From positions 2,609,341 through 2,673,340 of the forward strand of contig CAVYYE010000003.1 in NCBI GenBank assembly GCA_963772655.1: 64,000 bases of DNA. Reading direction: 5' to 3'. Numbering within the stretch: the first letter of the stretch is position 1; every line of letters begins with the position of its first letter. A program made the position numbers and the translations under genes. Below, in pieces: positions 4,174-46,330 of this stretch. The notes below the pieces were generated by a model, which saw only the letters and a program-made list of their open reading frames with translations, did not search any database and was not told where the DNA came from. The DNA comes from an uncultured delta proteobacterium. Lineage in GTDB: Bacteria > Myxococcota_A > Polyangia > Haliangiales > Haliangiaceae.

Positions 4174-4662
4174 ATGTCCGCCATGTTCAAGCTCGGTGGG
4201 ATCGCGCTTGCCGTCGTGCTCGCGGCGTGCGGCGCGGGGTCGAAGTCGTCGCAGCAGACCATGCCGATGGCGCAGCAACCGTCGGAGTGCGAGGTGATGG
4301 CGAAGCACGTCGCCGGAGTCGTGATGCGCTTCCAGGAGCCACCTCCGACCACCGAGGATGCCGTGGCCGACGTGATCGGCAGGCACTGCGAATCCGACGG
4401 CTGGAGCGCCGACGCCAAGCAGTGTCTCGGCGGAGCCACCGACGAGCCGTCGGTGAAGGCGTGCGTGTCGAGCCTGACCGAGCAGCAACACGATGCGGTC
4501 ATGACCGACTTCCGGGCGCTCGTCGGGGTCCACAAGGACGAGGCCAAGACGACGGACGCTTCGCCCCCTCCACCACCGCAGCCGGAACCGAACACCGGGG
4601 GCTCGATCCCGGGTGGCGGCGACGGCGGCGACGGCGCGGACCCCTGCGAGGGCGGCGAGTAA
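4174..4662 (+). CDS. lipoprotein, hypothetical (paralog of previous gene)
   Basis: Signal peptide/lipobox VVLAACGA; shares motif CE.MA.H..G...RxCxxDxWxxDAxxC with 3798-4172; Pro-rich acidic C-terminus. Confidence 0.5.
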
Positions 4663-4706
4663 GGTTTCGGCGCGGGGTCCGCGCGGGACGTGCTAAACGA
4701 CCTGCC

Positions 4707-6884
<2,178 letters not shown>

Positions 6885-6902: not shown

Positions 6903-7460
6903 ATGCGCGAGCTCGCGAACTCCGTGACGATCATGGCGATCGCGATCGCGATCGCGGCGTGCGGCGGCCATCACTACGATGCCTCCGAGGCCCACGCGAT
7001 CACGACGTCGGCCGTCGCGGTCGGAGATCGTGCCCCGAGCTCCACGTTGACCGACGCGTCGGGGCATCCCGTCGCGCTCGCGACGATCATCGGAGCGCAC
7101 GAGCGAACGATCGTCACGTTCTATCGCGGCTTCTATTGAAGCAGCTGCACGCGCTGGCTCGGCGAGCTGGCGAATCATGCGAGCGATCTCGCGGCGCGCG
7201 ATGCCGTGGTGGTGGCGATCGCCGCGGACGAGGTCGAGGACATGGCCGCGCTACAGACCCGCATGCGCGGCATCGTGTTGTTGACCGATCCTGGCCTCAC
7301 CGTGCTGCGCGCGTGGGGGGCCTTACTCCCGGGAGCCGAGCACCCCAGCCCGATCACGTTCGTGGTGAGGCGTGACGAACGCATCAGCTACCGGCACCCA
7401 CTCGACGAACACGGCGATTGGCCGCCCTATGCCAACGTGTTCGACGCGTTGTCGCGATAA
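6903..7460 (+). CDS. redoxin/AhpC-TSA family thiol-disulfide oxidoreductase lipoprotein with in-frame TGA at the active site (candidate selenoprotein, U-x-x-C); alternatively a pseudogene
   Basis: ORFs 6903-7139 and 7206-7460 are in the same frame and separated by a single TGA (7137-7139); combined product reads ...VGDRAPSSTLTDASGHPVALATIIGAHERTIVTFYRGFY-[TGA]-SSCTRWLGELA..., aligning to the redoxin FYRGxWCPxC motif with TGA at the first Cys; lipobox AIAIAACGG. Confidence 0.5.
7152..7172 (+). promoter_or_regulatory. candidate SECIS-like hairpin about 12 nt downstream of the in-frame UGA
   Basis: Inverted complementarity CGCUGGCUC / GAGCUGGCG (with G-U pairs) forming a ~9-bp GC-rich stem with a small apical loop, starting ~12 nt 3' of UGA; folding not computed. 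Confidence 0.25.
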
Positions 7461-7528: not shown

Positions 7529-9256
7529 ATGACGGCGGCATCTCCATCGCCCGACACGCACGATGTCGAGCTCGGCACCGTGCTGGACGGGCGCTACCGC
7601 ATCGATGCGGTGCTCGGCACCGGCGGGATGGGATGCGTCTATCGTGGCGAGCACACCGGCATCGGTCGCCCGGTGGCGATCAAGGTGCTCCACGCCGACC
7701 TCAACCGTAACCGCGAGGCCGCGCAGCGGTTCCAGCGGGAGGCGATCGCCTCCGGTCGCCTCGATCATCCCAACATCGTCGGAGTCAGCGACTTCGGCGT
7801 CCTCGAATCGGGCTCGTGCTACCTGGTCATGGAGGTGCTCGAGGGAGAGTCGCTCGGGACGCGCCTCGAGCGGGAGCGCCGGATCCCGTGGCCCGAGGCG
7901 CTCGCGATCCTGCGCGGCGTGCTTCGCGGCCTCCACCACGCCCACGAACGTGGCGTCGTGCACCGCGACATCAAACCCGACAACATCTTCCTCGCACGCA
8001 AAGACGACGAGACCGTGGTCAAGATCCTCGATTTCGGGATCGCCAAGCTGTACGCCGGGAGCGCCGACGATCCGGCCTCGACGCGCGCCGGGATCACGGT
8101 CGGAACGCCTGCCTACCTGTCTCCGGAGCAGGCGGTCGGCGGCGAGATCAAGCCGGCCTCCGACATCTACTCGACGTCGATCGTGCTCTACGAGATGCTG
8201 ACCGGGCGCCCGCCGTTCGAGGACGAGGATCCGCTCGCGATGCTCGGCGCCCACGTCAGCCGGCCACCGCCGCCGTTCGCGGAGCGCGCGCCGGATCTCG
8301 ACGTCCCTCCCGAAGTCGAGGCGCTGATCGATCACGGACTGGCCAAGATCGCCGCCGAGCGCATCGGCTCGGCGAACGACTACATCGCCCAGATCGACGC
8401 GATCCTGGCCGCCAAGCCCAGAGGAGGCGTCGCCGCACTGATCGCCTCGGAGCTCGGCGGTGCACCCGCGCTCGGCACGCAACAGACCGACCTCGCGATC
8501 GCGACCTCGATGCCAGGCAACATTGCCACCCCGGTCCCGGGCGGCGAGGCGGGTGTCGTCACGCCACTTCCGCGTGCCGCGACGCCGTTTCCCCAGCTGG
8601 CCACGCCGGTCCCCGGCACCGTCACCCCCGTGCCCGGCACCGCCACGCCGGTCCCCAACACCCCCACGCCAGGCACCGCCACGCCGGTCCCCGGCACCGT
8701 CACGCCCGTGCCCGGCGGCATGCACGTCGCACGAGCGATCCGTGCGGTGTCGATCGCCGATGCGGCCCCGATCCCGCGGCGATGGCTCGTGCGCGGCGCG
8801 GTGATCGCCGCGATCACGATCGCGGTCGTCCTGCTACTGATCCTGTTGCGAGGGGGCAAGAGCGATCACGCGAAGTCCGGGTCGACCGATCGTTCCGTTC
8901 CCACCAGGGCCGCGCCAACCCCGACGTTGTTGTCCCCGACACCGGTCTACAACGAGCGCGACGACGAGGAACATCAGACCAAGCTCAAGGCTGCGCTGTA
9001 CGAGCTCAAGGAAGGCAAGACCTGCGAGGATCGACGTGCCGCGATCTCCGACTTGCTCGATCTCGACGATCCAGCGGCGATCCCGGATCTCAAGCGCGCG
9101 CGCTATCGCATGCGCGGCGGCGTGCTCGGGATCGGTGACTCGAACACCAACGGGTGCCTCCGCAAGGATGCCGAGGAGGCGATCCAGGAACTGTCGCGCA
9201 ACCTGCCCGATCCACCACCCCGCAAGCGGGGACGCGGACGCGGGCGGCATTTCTAG
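7529..9256 (+). CDS. serine/threonine protein kinase (Hanks-type) with Pro-rich TPVPG repeats, TM segment and C-terminal HEAT-like region
   Basis: Kinase subdomains GTGGMGCVY, AIK, HRDIKPDN, DFG, TPAYLSPE; repeats TPVPGTVTPVPGTATPVPNTPTPGTATPVPG; hydrophobic segment AVIAAITIAVVLLLILL. Confidence 0.9.
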   Translation: MTAASPSPDTHDVELGTVLDGRYRIDAVLGTGGMGCVYRGEHTGIGRPVAIKVLHADLNRNREAAQRFQREAIASGRLDHPNIVGVSDFGVLESGSCYLVMEVLEGESLGTRLERERRIPWPEALAILRGVLRGLHHAHERGVVHRDIKPDNIFLARKDDETVVKILDFGIAKLYAGSADDPASTRAGITVGTPAYLSPEQAVGGEIKPASDIYSTSIVLYEMLTGRPPFEDEDPLAMLGAHVSRPPPPFAERAPDLDVPPEVEALIDHGLAKIAAERIGSANDYIAQIDAILAAKPRGGVAALIASELGGAPALGTQQTDLAIATSMPGNIATPVPGGEAGVVTPLPRAATPFPQLATPVPGTVTPVPGTATPVPNTPTPGTATPVPGTVTPVPGGMHVARAIRAVSIADAAPIPRRWLVRGAVIAAITIAVVLLLILLRGGKSDHAKSGSTDRSVPTRAAPTPTLLSPTPVYNERDDEEHQTKLKAALYELKEGKTCEDRRAAISDLLDLDDPAAIPDLKRARYRMRGGVLGIGDSNTNGCLRKDAEEAIQELSRNLPDPPPRKRGRGRGRHF

Positions 9257-22309: not shown

Positions 22310-23110
22310 CTAGGCGCGATCGCTCGGCCCGAACACGCGATTGCGTCCAGCCCGCTTGGCTTCGATCAGGTTCTCGTCGGCGGTCTGCAACGAGGTCGTC
22401 GAATCCGCGCCGAGCATCGCGACGCCGATCGAGACCGTGGCGCGGATCTGGTTCTGGTCGGCCTCGAACGGAACCGCAGAAAACTCGGGCTCGCAGGCGA
22501 CCCGGATTCGTTCGCCGAGCGCCTCCGCCTGTTCGACCGACGTGCCCGGCGCGACGATCACGAACTCCTCGCCGCCGTAGCGCCCGAGCAACATCGGCCA
22601 GGCGACGTGGCGCCGGATCCGCTCGGCGGTCAGCTGGATCACCTGATCGCCGGCCACGTGTCCGTAGTGGTCGCACAGCTTCTTGAGCCAGTCGATGTCG
22701 ATCAAGAGCAGCGCGCCGGCGGAGACTCGCTCGAGGTATCTCCACAACAGGCGCCGATCGAACAGGCCCGTCATCGGATCGACCACCGTATCGAGGTGAC
22801 GTTGCTCGCGCCGGGAGCTCTCTCCGTCACCCCCGAACAGCCGGAAGATGCGCGCGCCGATCACGAAGCGGTCGCCGTGGTGAAGCTCGACCTCGCTGGT
22901 CGCGAGCACATCTCCGACCATCGCGACAGAGGCACCGGGAATCAGTCGATAGCGACCGTCGCGGGCCGTGATCGTCGCGAGTGGCTGTTCGGGTGGCCCC
23001 TCCGGATCGAACAGCCCGCGACCGACAGGAAACCCGTAGGCGCCACCGATCGCGAGCTCGCCCTCGAACGTGACCCACCGCCGCGGCGACCTCCAGACTC
23101 CATCCACCAT
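22310..23110 (-). CDS. FHA domain-containing diguanylate cyclase (FHA-GGDEF)
   Basis: N-terminal FHA-like region (GRYRLIPGASVAMVGDVLATSEVELHHGDRFVIGARIF) and C-terminal GGDEF domain with intact RYGGEEF motif; start at MVDGVWRSP. Confidence 0.8.
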   Translation of the reverse strand: MVDGVWRSPRRWVTFEGELAIGGAYGFPVGRGLFDPEGPPEQPLATITARDGRYRLIPGASVAMVGDVLATSEVELHHGDRFVIGARIFRLFGGDGESSRREQRHLDTVVDPMTGLFDRRLLWRYLERVSAGALLLIDIDWLKKLCDHYGHVAGDQVIQLTAERIRRHVAWPMLLGRYGGEEFVIVAPGTSVEQAEALGERIRVACEPEFSAVPFEADQNQIRATVSIGVAMLGADSTTSLQTADENLIEAKRAGRNRVFGPSDRA

Positions 23111-23155
23111 CAACGTCGCGCGATCGCGGGCCACGATCGAGCTTACGATGTCCTC

Positions 23156-24181
23156 GTGGCCACGCGCGAGCAGCTCGCTGCCCAGATCACGGACACGCCG
23201 TACGACGACGAGCTGTACGTGATCTACGGCGACCTGCTGCAACAACATGGCGATCCGCGCGGCGAGCTGATCGCGATCGATGCCGCCGCGACCCGCGCTC
23301 CGGCCGACTTCGGTGCGTGGCGCCGGCGTCGCGTCGAGTGGCTGGCGGCACACCCCGAGCTGGTTCCCCCGAGCGACGGCGTCGAGCTGACCTGGCACCT
23401 CGGGTTCGTGAGACGCGTATCGGTGCACGAGCAATCCGCGCGACTCGCCGAGCTGGCCGCCCACCCGTCGCTCGCGTTCGCCACCGAGCTAACGCTGGAG
23501 CTGTCCAGGCTCGGTGCCGAGGACATCGCGACCACGACCGCCTCGTTTCCCCTCCTGTCGCGACTCGCGCTCGGCGATCCCGACGCGCGCTCGTGGGGTC
23601 GCGATGACGACACCGTCTACGACCTCGCCGTGATCGCACCGCGGCTCGAGGATCTCGTTTCCTCCGTGGCGGTCGCGTTCGAGCACGCGCCACGTCTGCG
23701 CCGGTTGTCCCTGCGGGAGGTCGACGCGCCCGCGCTCGCCCGCGTCGTGCGAGCCCGCCTCCCCACCCTCGAGGAGCTGTCGCTGAAACTCCAGCGTCCG
23801 CGATCGTACCGGCGCGCGAACCTGCCGCCGGTCGAGCTCGTCGAGCCCGACCATCTGCGCGAGTTGTTTCGCGCGCCTCCGCCACGACTGGCCACGCTCG
23901 AGCTGATCGACGCATTGCCCGGCGACGACGTGGTCGCGGCGCTCGTGGGGTCGCCGCTCCTCGCGCAGCTTCGCGTGCTCCGGCTGTGGAACGCCGATCT
24001 CACCGATGCGGCGGCGCGCTACCTGACGCGCGAGGCGTGCGGTCACCTCGAGCTACTCGACCTCACCGACCCGCTGCTCGACGGCGCGCTCGCCGCGCGG
24101 CTCTCGACCGCGTGCGACGACGTTCGCACGACGAACCCGGTACTCGATCACGTACTGGGGCGCGCTACTTCGAAGCCGTGA
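23156..24181 (+). CDS. leucine-rich repeat protein with N-terminal TIGR02996-like repeat-companion domain
   Basis: N-terminal YDDELYVIYGDLLQQHGDPRGELI matches the xYADWLEExGDPRGEFI motif of TIGR02996; leucine-rich C-terminal region; GTG start inferred; divergent from FHA-GGDEF gene. Confidence 0.55.
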   Translation: MATREQLAAQITDTPYDDELYVIYGDLLQQHGDPRGELIAIDAAATRAPADFGAWRRRRVEWLAAHPELVPPSDGVELTWHLGFVRRVSVHEQSARLAELAAHPSLAFATELTLELSRLGAEDIATTTASFPLLSRLALGDPDARSWGRDDDTVYDLAVIAPRLEDLVSSVAVAFEHAPRLRRLSLREVDAPALARVVRARLPTLEELSLKLQRPRSYRRANLPPVELVEPDHLRELFRAPPPRLATLELIDALPGDDVVAALVGSPLLAQLRVLRLWNADLTDAAARYLTREACGHLELLDLTDPLLDGALAARLSTACDDVRTTNPVLDHVLGRATSKP

Positions 24182-41968: not shown

Positions 41969-43165
41969 TCAGCGCAGCTCGGCGAGGCGGTCCTCGAGGA
42001 ACCGGCGCTCGGGCTCGGTGCCCGCCAGCTCGAGCGCCCGCCGGTAGGCCGTGCGCGCCGCGCGCTTGTCACCGCGTTGCGCCTGCAACTGACCGATCGC
42101 CGCAGCCAGCACCGGATCGTCGTCGAGCCGCGCGTCGCCCGCGACTTGCTGGAGGGCGCGCAACCCGACCTTCGGTCCGTGGGCATGCCCGATCGCGATC
42201 GCGCGCTGCATCGCGACCACCGGCGAGGGTTGCAGGGCGAGCAGACGATCGTAGAGCGCGACGATTCGCGCCCAATCGGTCGCGTCATACACGGGGGCCA
42301 ACGCGTGACACGCCGCGATCGCCGCCTCGACGTGATATGGCGACATCGCGTCGCCGGCCGAAGCCGTCGCGAGATGCGCGAGCCCGGTCTCGATCATGCC
42401 GCGGTCCCAGCGCGTGCGGTCCTGCCGATCGAGCGACACCAGGTTTCCGGCCTCGTCGACGCGCGCCGCCAGCCGCGCCGTCTGGAGCAAGAACAACGCG
42501 TGCAACGCGTGGCCTCGCGGGGTCGGAAACCGTTCGAGCACCAACTCGTGGAGCCGGATGGCCGTGCGGCAGAGATCCTCGTCGATCTGTTGCTCGCCCG
42601 CGTGGACGCTATAGCCCTCCAGGAACAGCACGTACAGCGTTCGCAGGACCGCGTCGAGCCGCAGTTCGACATCGTCGGTCAGCTCGAGCTCGACGCCGAG
42701 CTCTCGCAGCGTCTGGCGAGCGCGCAACAGCCGCTTCGCGATCGCCGCCTCGTCGGCGTACAGCGCGCGGCACAGCGCCGGCACCGGGAACCCGCACAGC
42801 GTGCGCAACGCCAGCGCCAGCGCACTCTCCACCGGCAACGCGGGGTGGCAACACACGAACATCATCCGCAGCAGCGCGTCATCTCCCGTCGGCGGATCGG
42901 GAACCGCTTCGATCGCGTCGAGCTCGTCGGGTGGCGCGAACCGTGCCGCGCGACGCAACGCATCGATCACGCGCCGGCGCGCGACCTCGTGGAGCCAGGC
43001 CGCCGGCCGTTCCGGTGGAGTCTCGCCCCAGGCCTCGAGCGCGGCGACGAACGCTTCCTGCACGCCGGCTTCGATCACATCCAACCGGTGCGGCCCGAAC
43101 GCGTGGGCGAGCGACGCGATGAGGAACGGCGCGTGCTCGCGATACAGCGCGTCGAACGAGATCAC
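41969..43165 (-). CDS. ECF sigma factor with C-terminal TPR-like extension (ECF42-type)
   Basis: N-terminal sigma-70 region 2 (FDALYREHAPFLIASL..) and region 4 (LRTLCGFPVPALCRALYADEAAIAKRLLRAR), ~200-aa C-terminal helical/TPR-like extension; GTG start inferred. Confidence 0.8.
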   Translation of the reverse strand: MISFDALYREHAPFLIASLAHAFGPHRLDVIEAGVQEAFVAALEAWGETPPERPAAWLHEVARRRVIDALRRAARFAPPDELDAIEAVPDPPTGDDALLRMMFVCCHPALPVESALALALRTLCGFPVPALCRALYADEAAIAKRLLRARQTLRELGVELELTDDVELRLDAVLRTLYVLFLEGYSVHAGEQQIDEDLCRTAIRLHELVLERFPTPRGHALHALFLLQTARLAARVDEAGNLVSLDRQDRTRWDRGMIETGLAHLATASAGDAMSPYHVEAAIAACHALAPVYDATDWARIVALYDRLLALQPSPVVAMQRAIAIGHAHGPKVGLRALQQVAGDARLDDDPVLAAAIGQLQAQRGDKRAARTAYRRALELAGTEPERRFLEDRLAELR

Positions 43166-43671
43166 GGCGCGAGCATCGCACGCGACGCCGAAAGTGCCGA
43201 ACCCCCTCCACGCTTGCGCGGGAAGGGGGCTCGTCGGAGTTGTCTTTGGTGGCGTGATCGGGGTGTCGGCGTGTGCGAACCGTAGCGTGCTAGGCCGGCG
43301 AGAGCCGGGGCGACGAGCTAAGCGGTCATTCCACACAACGTCGCGACGACGGCGACCAGCGCGTTCTCCTTCTACAGCTTACGGATCGTCACGTGCGTGC
43401 AACAAATGCGACCTCCATCGGTAACCCGGCTGACTCGAAGAGTCCCGTGGCTTTGCGTAGCCCGCTCGCGCGGGGGTTGCCGTTTCGTGGCGCGGGATGT
43501 TCCCCGCCTGGTGTCGATACGACTACCTCGAAGGACCTGCCCTGATACGAGTCGCTGTTCTCACTCTCCTCCTTTGGTTGGTCGAAGGTGATTGATTCCA
43601 CCGTAACGGAAGCGAGTGCGAGTTGTCACGAGAAAATCGACGACGAGAGATCGTCATCGCGCAAGCGCGCG

Positions 43672-44675: not shown

Positions 44676-44926
44676 CTGCGACCATCGTAGCTGCGTTCCT
44701 GAATCAGGTGCTCCGTTCGAGCCGGCGTTCGTTCGCCCGCTGCCAACGGCGGTGGCAGGTCGTCGCTCTCGCGCGCAGTGCCGAGCTCGAGCTTTTGCCG
44801 AAGCGATCGCCAACCGAGTGTACGATCCGTGATCGATCGCCAACCCGATTGGCGGCGAATCGAGTTGCCGGTCCAATGACGATCGCGAGTTAGCGCGTGG
44901 AACTCGCGTTGCACACAGTGCGCGCC

Positions 44927-46330
44927 ATGTCGCTCCTTCGCTTCGCCTTGCTCACGACGTTGCTGTTCGCCTGCAGTGGTGGTGGGAGTGGGACCGGTGA
45001 CGACGACGTCGGACCCGACGCCAGCGTCACCCCGCCAGGCTCCACCGATCCGCTCGACGGACTCCCCACCGGTGTCGACCAGTGGAACGCGCTGTGCGCC
45101 AAGGGGTACGGCGACATGATCAGCGCGAAGTTCTGTGCGGGTTCGACACCGCCGACCATCACATCGCTCGCCCAGCTCGAGCAGTTCCTCGGGCTACGCG
45201 TGCAGCCCAATCCCAACAACGACCCCAACATCAACAAGACCATCCGGTGGACGCTGACCGGTCACTCGACGGGACTCGGCCTGCGCTCGGTGACGCCGCT
45301 GACCCCGCGCGCGTTCATCATGACCACGCCCAACAACACGGCGCCCAACCCGCAGTACCAGGTGGTGTCGTTCTCGCGCGGCGAGCCGCTGGTCGAGCTG
45401 GTCGCCAACGATCCCAACGCCAACACGTTGCGGTTCTTCCTGGTCAGGTTCCACCCGGCGTGCGAGGCCACGGGCTGCAATGCCGCCGACCTGCTGACGC
45501 CGTCGATCGAATCGGGCTGGACCGACTACACGATCTACGACGACGACACGATCAAGAACACCACGCTCGACTGTCTGACCTGTCATCAGCCGAACGGTCC
45601 CAACACCACCAAGATGCTGCGGATGCAGGAGCTCGCCGGCCCGTGGGCGCACTGGTTCTATATCGAGCACAACTCCAACAAACTCACGATGGACGACTTC
45701 CACGCCGCGCACGGCAACGAGGACTACGCCGGCATTCCGATGTCCGCGATCAACCCGTCGCGCCCGATCCAGTTGATGAAGCTGGTGCAGAACAACGGGT
45801 TCGCCAACCAGCCCGACTCGTTCGACAGCACCACGATCGAGAACGAGCTCGCGGCCACCGGCACCAGCGCGACCTGGAACGCGCGGTACGCCAAGACGGT
45901 CGCCGGCACCGCGATCCCGGCGCCGTACTACGGGATCCCGCAGACCGATCCGGTCAAGGTCGCCCAGATGGTCCAGGCCTACTCCGCCACGATGGCCGGC
46001 ACGCTGCCGCGCGACCAGATGCCCGACATCAACGACACCCTGCTCGATAGCGCGCTACCCGCGATGTCGATCCGCCCGAAGGCCGGCCTCGACGGCAAGG
46101 GCATCCTCGATCACATGTGCCGGATGTGTCACAACGGCCTGCTCGACCAGACCATCACCCGTGCGCGGTTCGACATTTCGCAGCTGTCGTCGATGTCGCG
46201 CGGCGAGAAGGACGAGGCGATCCGGCGGCTGATGCTCCCGGAGACCGACGCCAAGCACATGCCCCCGGCGCGGTTCCACACGCTGTCGGACGCCGAGCGC
46301 GACCTCGCGATCCAGGAGCTGTCGCAGTAA
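44927..46330 (+). CDS. putative di-heme c-type cytochrome lipoprotein
   Basis: Lipobox LLFACSGG; two CxxCH heme-binding motifs (CLTCH, CRMCH) ~180 aa apart. Confidence 0.65.
   Translation: MSLLRFALLTTLLFACSGGGSGTGDDDVGPDASVTPPGSTDPLDGLPTGVDQWNALCAKGYGDMISAKFCAGSTPPTITSLAQLEQFLGLRVQPNPNNDPNINKTIRWTLTGHSTGLGLRSVTPLTPRAFIMTTPNNTAPNPQYQVVSFSRGEPLVELVANDPNANTLRFFLVRFHPACEATGCNAADLLTPSIESGWTDYTIYDDDTIKNTTLDCLTCHQPNGPNTTKMLRMQELAGPWAHWFYIEHNSNKLTMDDFHAAHGNEDYAGIPMSAINPSRPIQLMKLVQNNGFANQPDSFDSTTIENELAATGTSATWNARYAKTVAGTAIPAPYYGIPQTDPVKVAQMVQAYSATMAGTLPRDQMPDINDTLLDSALPAMSIRPKAGLDGKGILDHMCRMCHNGLLDQTITRARFDISQLSSMSRGEKDEAIRRLMLPETDAKHMPPARFHTLSDAERDLAIQELSQ

Follow-up and report, generated by a model that had tools for sequence, protein, structure and literature searches.

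Peroxiredoxin (Prx)-like selenoproteins are the described proteins closest to the one reported here. The Sargasso Sea study recognised a Prx-like family, distant to Prx, in which a thioredoxin-like UXXC motif (U is selenocysteine, Sec) replaces the TXXU of Sec-containing Prx (PMC1088965). The entry 'Prx-like 1, pfam00578, UxxC' is among the most abundant selenoprotein families of the Global Ocean Sampling (GOS) data (PMC2398784 Table 2), and a 'Prx-like thiol:disulfide oxidoreductase, PF00578, UxxC/UxxU' has been predicted with high confidence (PMC9312934, PMC13188914). The Prx-like selenoprotein family is defined by its domain plus its motif (PMC9312934, PMC1088965). The related SelL-related or Prx-like2 group also includes Sec forms, and SelL itself is a eukaryotic UxxU protein whose selenocysteine insertion sequence (SECIS) lies in the 3' untranslated region (PMC2398784). 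In Myxococcota the Sec trait is documented for Anaeromyxobacter (PMC1794560), and our literature search for Sec in Haliangium, Myxococcales or Haliangiales gave nothing specific. Here we describe a gene on the + strand (6903–7460) of a 64,000-nucleotide stretch, the window, of contig CAVYYE010000003.1 from an uncultured delta proteobacterium of the Haliangiaceae. Its reading frame contains an in-frame TGA at 7137–7139 (+), which we predict to be a Sec codon (U79) at the first position of a U-x-x-C motif. Comparative sequence evidence makes it very probable that this UGA is decoded as Sec in a single functional gene for an exported lipoprotein.

By the domain-plus-motif rule, and not by orthology, the predicted protein belongs to the Prx-like PF00578 UxxC family. 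With that family, whose reference member is Geobacter WP_010940744.1, it shares the PF00578 domain, the U-x-x-C motif, the pairing of Sec and Cys forms and a predicted bacterial SECIS (bSECIS) just past the UGA. The motif reads U-x-[S/A/T]-C in all family members and U79-S-S-C82 in the window. The window subclade is set apart within the family by its lipoprotein signal, by the sequence FYRGF[YWF]-U-x-S-C and by the lack of a 24-residue insertion.

The gene comprises 185 codons including Sec79, followed by its true stop, TAA, at 7458–7460. The TGA is the only internal stop in the 6903–7460 frame. The sequence around it encodes FYRGFY-TGA-SSC, and the TGC codon of Cys82, the predicted resolving partner in U-S-S-C, lies at 7146–7148 (+). 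The initial annotation had read the two same-frame open reading frames (ORFs) at 6903–7139 and 7206–7460, parted by the TGA, as one gene, and a single frame is indeed what we found. The GC content at third codon positions (GC3) is of the coding type on both sides of the TGA (0.86 and 0.84 for the two ORFs, in sequence of 68% GC). Furthermore, the Pfam AhpC-TSA profile (PF00578) matches the read-through product across the TGA, at residues 40–163, with E=4.7e-18 and a score of 65.7 bits against a gathering cutoff of 26, and the match covers profile positions 1–123 of 124. The frame opens with a predicted lipoprotein signal peptide, MRELANSVTIMAIAIAIAAC, at 6903–6962 (+), which ends in the lipobox IAAC with the Cys20 codon at 6960–6962. 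By pattern inspection only, a lipobox-like x-x-[GAS]-C ends the hydrophobic N-terminus in the window gene and in all homologs.

A contig assembled from ERR11594398 is identical to the window at 1564 of 1565 nucleotides and carries the same TGA, which argues against an assembly artefact, with the proviso that the two may share raw data. When the window was scanned for in-frame TGA codons with coding-type composition on both sides, the redoxin site was returned together with one antisense artefact only; the pattern is therefore near-unique in the window and not a common chance occurrence. The other TGA, at 45264 (−), has coding-like GC3 on both sides and lies antisense to a gene at 44897–46330 (+). 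We regard it as a compositional artefact and not as a second selenoprotein, because the antisense frame shares third positions with the strongly coding + gene. Outside the redoxin family, scanning of the window and the related loci gave no further credible in-frame TGA candidates.

We found the TGA in 17 further distinct homologs: L001–L015, which came from scans of metagenome and genome collections, and L021 and L022/L023, which came from later look-ups. Counts out of 16 given below refer to an aligned set of 16 sequences, besides which L021 and L022 were examined. The window gene and 17/17 further sequences, which are 44–66% identical, all have TGA in this column; neither another stop codon (TAA, TAG) nor a sense codon takes its place. 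The frame of all 17 homologs is intact on both sides, with no extra stops or frameshifts. The closest relative, L021, has 66% identity, and L022/L023 have 44% identity and a different gene context. Three of the 15 loci from the scans belong to metagenome-assembled genomes (MAGs) labelled Deltaproteobacteria, Proteobacteria and Haliangiales, and two additional contigs show the same split-ORF layout, as judged from the layout only. The best match of the first protein search, P0001 (56% identity), starts four residues past the TGA column, and its contig holds a 73-aa ORF in the same frame that ends 9 nt upstream of P0001. The mean pairwise proportion of synonymous differences (pS) among the homologs is ~0.4, and the median pairwise ratio of nonsynonymous to synonymous change (dN/dS) is 0.63 upstream of the TGA and 0.45 downstream. 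Neighbouring genes recur at 55–82% identity in L002, L013–L015 and L021, namely those for a YgiQ-type radical SAM protein, a Ser/Thr kinase, an ADP-ribosylglycohydrolase, an alpha/beta hydrolase and a GH92 protein, indicating that these loci are orthologous.

The column of the TGA is a Cys column in related proteins. In five distant homologs (26–31% identity, full-length alignment), the first Cys of W-C-P-[YF]-C, within FYRG-x-W-C-P-x-C, aligns with the TGA. An exhaustive representative search and a family-profile search yielded four full-length Cys-form orthologs in the same lipoprotein subfamily (P0009, P0013, P0017 and P0062), which are 45–61% identical to the Sec forms and carry the motif FYRGFW-C-ETC or FHRGFY-C-HSC; the DNA of all four has TGC at the TGA column. 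The suggestion, made from the window alone, that the TGA occupies the first Cys of a conserved motif is thus borne out by both sets of homologs. In a neighbour-joining tree, drawn without support values, P0009, P0013 and P0017 fall on separate branches among the Sec forms, with the CxxC proteins as outgroup. This topology suggests that Sec may have been gained near the base of the clade and then replaced by Cys more than once.

Just past the UGA lies a predicted bSECIS hairpin at 7152–7172 (+), with 9 bp in the window (arms 7152–7160 and 7164–7172). Its conserved 7-bp core on the same strand consists of CUGGCUC (7154–7160), the loop GGC (7161–7163) and GAGCUGG (7164–7170); the family consensus is CUGGCUC-GGY-GAGCUGG, encoded by the W-L-G-E-L-A codons. 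Counting the U of the UGA as nt 1, the core arms occupy nt 18–24 and 28–34 and the loop nt 25–27. The distance from the UGA is 12 nt to the 9-bp stem, 14 nt to the 7-bp core and 21 nt to the loop. Published bSECIS criteria are a loop of 3–9 nt, an upper stem of 4–16 bp, a UGA-to-loop distance of 16–37 nt and a minimum free energy (MFE) of <= -7.5 kcal/mol, with G in the first two loop positions, usually then followed by G or U (PMC13188914). The hairpin agrees with all of them, having a GGY loop of 3 nt, a stem of 7–9 bp, a spacing of 21 nt and an MFE within the range. A lower stem that some MFE folds hinted at, in which the Ser-Cys codons would pair with the His-Ala codons, was rejected, as it is 60% paired and no better than in shuffled or slid sequences.

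The homologs show how closely this RNA element is tied to the TGA. All 7 stem pairs are identical at the nucleotide level in 16/16 sequences, and in L021 and L022 as well. The degenerate codons within the stem are fixed (Leu CTC, Glu GAG and Leu CTG, each in 16/16), whereas all other invariant Leu columns of the gene vary in codon; the probability of three codon-invariant columns together is P=0.007. Immediately outside the stem, an Ala position uses all four Ala codons. The Gly codon of the loop is GGT in 10/16, compared with 8% of the Gly codons elsewhere in the family genes, and GGG and GGA, jointly 34% elsewhere, do not occur at this position; this bias indicates that the third loop base is held as a pyrimidine. 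The MFE lies between -7.7 and -13.3 kcal/mol in all 18 TGA forms. The corresponding segment of the four Cys forms gives -4.8, -3.2, -3.4 and -6.5 kcal/mol, all falling short of the bSECIS threshold, and in place of an invariant WLGELA these forms have the peptides RLGELS, WLRALA, WLSDLQ and WLGELS. Thus 18/18 TGA forms have the hairpin, against 0/4 Cys forms. The joint decay of hairpin and peptide in the Cys forms indicates that it is the RNA, and not the protein, that keeps WLGELA invariant.

The best known SECIS of this kind is that of E. coli fdhF. Both elements are hairpins that lie within the coding sequence soon past the UGA and offer G-U or G-G to SelB in a small apical loop. In fdhF, according to what Huttenhofer and Bock, and Liu and colleagues in 1998, reportedly found, the minimal upper stem-loop of 17 nt starts 11 nt after the UGA and has G23 and U24 in its loop. 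In the window gene, the stem starts 12–14 nt after the UGA, the loop is a G-G-Y triloop at nt 25–27, and there is no bulged U. We propose that the hairpin, 14 nt past the UGA, would recruit SelB·GTP·Sec-tRNA(Sec) during translation and that Sec would be inserted at the UGA instead of termination. The full-length pre-protein would then be exported, lipidated and cleaved at Cys20, and the mature protein would act as an extracytoplasmic thiol:disulfide (selenenylsulfide) oxidoreductase, in which Sec79, at the N-terminus of helix alpha1, would attack as the nucleophile and Cys82 would resolve the selenenylsulfide. TGA also serves as an ordinary terminator, ending 17 of the 38 large ORFs of the window. 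Moreover, it is the true stop in 9 of the 13 complete redoxin family genes among L001–L015 (e.g. 1629–1631 in L001), ~100 codons past the Sec-UGA. The same mRNA would thus use UGA in both senses, told apart only by the adjacent hairpin.

Several observations weigh against decoding as Sec. Taken alone, the hairpin is no more stable than shuffled sequence (z=+1.64); 12.5% of the UGA trinucleotides in the window are followed by a hairpin that passes the bSECIS criteria, and 3.2% by one as good. Its conservation is partly confounded with that of the WLGELA peptide, it shows no covariation, all 7 pairs being invariant, and no SECIS-type Rfam family matched at the gathering threshold or at E<=10, the sole hit being a chance match to ASdes (E=7.8). 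The dN/dS of the N-terminal part is just moderately below 1, and the Nei–Gojobori (NG86) estimate is unreliable under strong GC3 bias. Finally, neither selA, selB or selD nor tRNA-Sec turned up in the 64-kb window or in the related loci (~100 kb): ARAGORN detected no tRNA of any kind, either in the window or in L001–L015, tblastn searches of the window and loci with E. coli SelA, SelB and SelD (NC_000913) gave chance matches only (E>0.1), and Pfam annotation of ~40 window genes returned nothing selenium-related. That a 64-kb window lacks Sec machinery counts neither for nor against Sec decoding. The significance of the hairpin lies in its strict co-occurrence with the TGA across the homologs, and not in its stability. 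Accordingly, of the GC-rich hairpin that the initial annotation had placed ~12 nt downstream, the spacing (12–14 nt) and the bSECIS character stand, whereas as a structure on its own it is statistically unremarkable.

If the locus were a pseudogene, a chance TGC-to-TGA nonsense mutation would have struck the catalytic Cys codon. This would agree with the single substitution that separates the TGA from the TGC of the Cys-form orthologs, with the two fragments given by all public gene calls and with the lack of visible Sec machinery in the window. However, we give this explanation almost no credence, as 17 further sequences share this TGA despite differences at about half of their synonymous sites, and none of them contains extra stops or frameshifts. 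The part downstream of it is constrained (dN/dS ~0.45), the stop is always TGA, and the hairpin goes with the TGA and not with the TGC of the Cys forms. Nor do the homologs represent one clonal population, given their 44–66% identity and differing genomic contexts. The remark that a chance nonsense mutation was unlikely, offered from the window sequence, is upheld by these orthologs, which are not decayed pseudogenes but 17/17 intact frames with TGA in the same column. The gene finders' two ORFs could also be taken at face value, as a 78-aa lipoprotein that terminates at the TGA and a separate C-terminal redoxin fragment, possibly making up a split enzyme, and some homologs (P0001, P0008 and P0010) do have a GTG 4 codons past the TGA. 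Yet a restart codon is not conserved: codon +4 is Thr (ACN), and no start, in 11/16, and the first in-frame start of the window gene after the TGA lies 23 codons downstream, where initiation would drop the invariant Cys82 and the RWLGELANHA segment. The downstream fragment would lack a signal peptide and stay in the cytoplasm, apart from the exported N-terminal half, and the break would cut through the CxxC active site of a single compact domain, separating beta1 from alpha1. Given also that the Cys-form orthologs are single polypeptides, an arrangement of two small genes appears extremely improbable.

A further explanation would be read-through that inserts another residue; the data show selection for read-through and not the residue inserted. 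A hairpin after a stop can also stimulate non-Sec read-through, with near-cognate insertion of Trp or Cys, and the Sec machinery might itself insert Cys. We nevertheless consider such read-through very unlikely. The recoded site is the nucleophilic Cys column of CxxC and alternates only with Cys, which is a signature of Sec, and Trp at that site would inactivate the enzyme. The hairpin has bSECIS-specific features, namely G-G/U in a small apical loop at 16–37 nt, and selenoproteins with a UxxC motif on PF00578 are already documented as a class. Insertion of Sec at the UGA therefore remains our preferred interpretation, and the selenoprotein assignment of the initial annotation is supported by the comparative sequence tests.

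By sequence, the solved structures closest to the protein are peroxiredoxins of the BCP/PrxQ type (3drn, E=3.8e-5). An AlphaFold2 (AF2) model of the Cys ortholog P0009 has a predicted local distance difference test (pLDDT) score of 89 and a predicted template modelling score (pTM) of 0.82. In this model, the Sec-equivalent Cys71 stands directly before helix 72–83 (alpha1) and Cys74 lies in its first turn; as modelled, the placement of the CxxC is the standard thioredoxin-fold geometry. A Foldseek search with the model returned AhpE and Bcp at the top (TM 0.73–0.83), and ResA, DsbE and Etrx2 at similar E-values. As Prx and thioredoxin-like proteins score so similarly, the fold alone does not decide the chemistry. 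The Cys82 column, which is Cys in 16/16, aligns with the peroxidatic Cys of BCP-type peroxiredoxins (HMMER, 2cx3 and 2ywn). Of the Prx PxxxT/SxxC...R set, however, only this Cys is kept: the Pro column is occupied by Arg75 (16/16) and the Thr/Ser column by Sec79, and in the alignment to 2cx3 the column of the catalytic Arg holds Pro150 (codon 7350–7352, +), within a P-x-T-F-V-V segment. Pro is found in this column in 12 of 13 complete family sequences and also in the CxxC homologs. We take Pro150 of P-x-T-F-V-V to be the cis-Pro position of thioredoxin-like oxidoreductases, from general knowledge of the fold (e.g. Copley et al. 2004). Because the protein lacks the Prx Pro, Thr and Arg and has a cis-Pro-like Pro, we infer that it is a thioredoxin-type thiol:disulfide oxidoreductase on a Prx/AhpC-TSA scaffold and not a peroxiredoxin. 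The initial annotation as a redoxin/AhpC-TSA-fold lipoprotein thus holds, as the PF00578 match and the lipobox attest, and is refined to a probable thioredoxin-like oxidoreductase. Export and lipidation, as well as the substrate, we infer likewise, the conserved lipobox pointing to membrane-anchored action outside the cytoplasm.

Canonical Prx (BCP/PrxQ and AhpE; 3drn, 2cx3 and 1xvw) are nearest in sequence and fold, and their peroxidatic Cys column corresponds to Cys82; in contrast to them, we would expect dithiol or selenolthiol exchange here, and not peroxide reduction at a Cp-Thr-Arg site. ResA, TlpA, CcmG/DsbE and the pneumococcal lipoprotein Etrx2 (1su9, 3gl3 and 2yp6) resemble the window protein in being membrane- or lipid-anchored, in having a thioredoxin fold with an additional N-terminal beta-hairpin, and in carrying CxxC where alpha1 begins as well as the P-T/x-T-F cis-Pro segment. 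They differ in having Cys in place of Sec, and the likeness in sequence is weak (21 bits for the NCBIfam ResA model against a cutoff of 170). The substrates of these proteins, apocytochrome c and MsrAB, have no evident counterpart beside the window gene. Among the NCBIfam models, the best match is the SelL-related redox protein (NF040769, Prx-like2), which has a Prx-like thioredoxin fold and a CxxC-type motif at the same position. Membership in NF040769 was rejected at 33.7 bits against a curated cutoff of 120, and no curated NCBIfam model reaches its threshold for the window protein.

The state of the databases reflects the in-frame TGA. Public gene calls (JGI, NCBI, ENA and Logan) split or truncate the family at the TGA, and we found no full-length Sec-containing entry among them. 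All the non-Cys database entries that we found are truncated fragments of 70–106 aa (e.g. P0001, P0007, P0008, P0010 and P0063–P0085), labelled 'peroxiredoxin', 'AhpC', 'redoxin domain-containing protein' (one of these from a Polyangiales MAG) or 'hypothetical'. The window ORF at 7206–7460 (+) is itself the database protein P0076. The subfamily has ~55 representatives at E<=1e-3 among 1.84 billion and occurs in Haliangiales/Polyangiales-type Myxococcota and in soil and groundwater metagenomes. It appears to have gone unrecognised so far and is arguably a new subfamily of a known selenoprotein class.

Downstream of the redoxin gene, and given here as context, lies a syntenic Ser/Thr protein kinase gene (Pkinase) at 7529–9256 (+). 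The encoded protein has a kinase domain, a Pro/Thr-rich linker, one transmembrane helix and an extracytoplasmic C-terminal domain of ~90 aa with two invariant Cys (GKTC...N.N.CL). Within this linker, a tandem-like repeat of TPVPGT variants at ~8480–8640 (+) differs strongly in length among orthologs: the window and L021 have a long version, and L002, L013 and L015 almost none. In at least six orthologous loci (L002, L013–L015, L021 and L026), one of them a Cys-form locus, the redoxin gene is followed by the kinase gene; kinase-like genes are also present at L004, L007 and L008, and the kinase is absent from the divergent context of L022. The adjacency and the conserved Cys pair raise the idea, which we regard as doubtful, that the redoxin and the kinase form an extracytoplasmic redox-signalling module. 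The selenoprotein would then oxidise or reduce the kinase Cys pair, or relay peroxide or disulfide stress to it, and so switch kinase activity. If this were true, a eukaryote-like kinase of bacteria would receive a selenium-dependent sensor input.

On the other side, a YgiQ-family radical SAM gene at 4227–6884 (+), with Radical_SAM_N, Radical_SAM and DUF3362 domains, ends 18 nt before the redoxin start. It adjoins the redoxin gene in L021, L014 and L015 and lies on the opposite strand in the latter two, so that it is not a strict operon partner. Elsewhere in the window, we found a cyclic di-GMP (c-di-GMP)-I riboswitch aptamer at 43417–43491 (−) (Rfam RF01051, 52.8 bits against a gathering threshold of 35, E=1.8e-7). 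It lies ~80 nt upstream of an extracytoplasmic function (ECF)-type sigma factor gene at 41969–43336 (−), with Sigma70_r2 and DUF6596 domains, and suggests that c-di-GMP controls this gene. A GGDEF diguanylate cyclase gene is located at 22310–23464 (−).

The gene described here leaves the current understanding of selenoproteins unchanged, and it would not surprise a specialist. A dedicated, Sec-aware model of the subfamily would repair dozens of database entries. The family offers a teaching case of a SECIS that constrains the protein sequence encoded by it and decays after replacement of Sec by Cys, with Sec forms and nested Cys forms in one small clade. It extends the UxxC Prx-like class by a member that is exported and lipid-anchored, as predicted from its lipobox, and it indicates the use of Sec in soil and groundwater Myxococcota of the Haliangiales/Polyangiales type, which do not feature in the selenoproteome surveys consulted.

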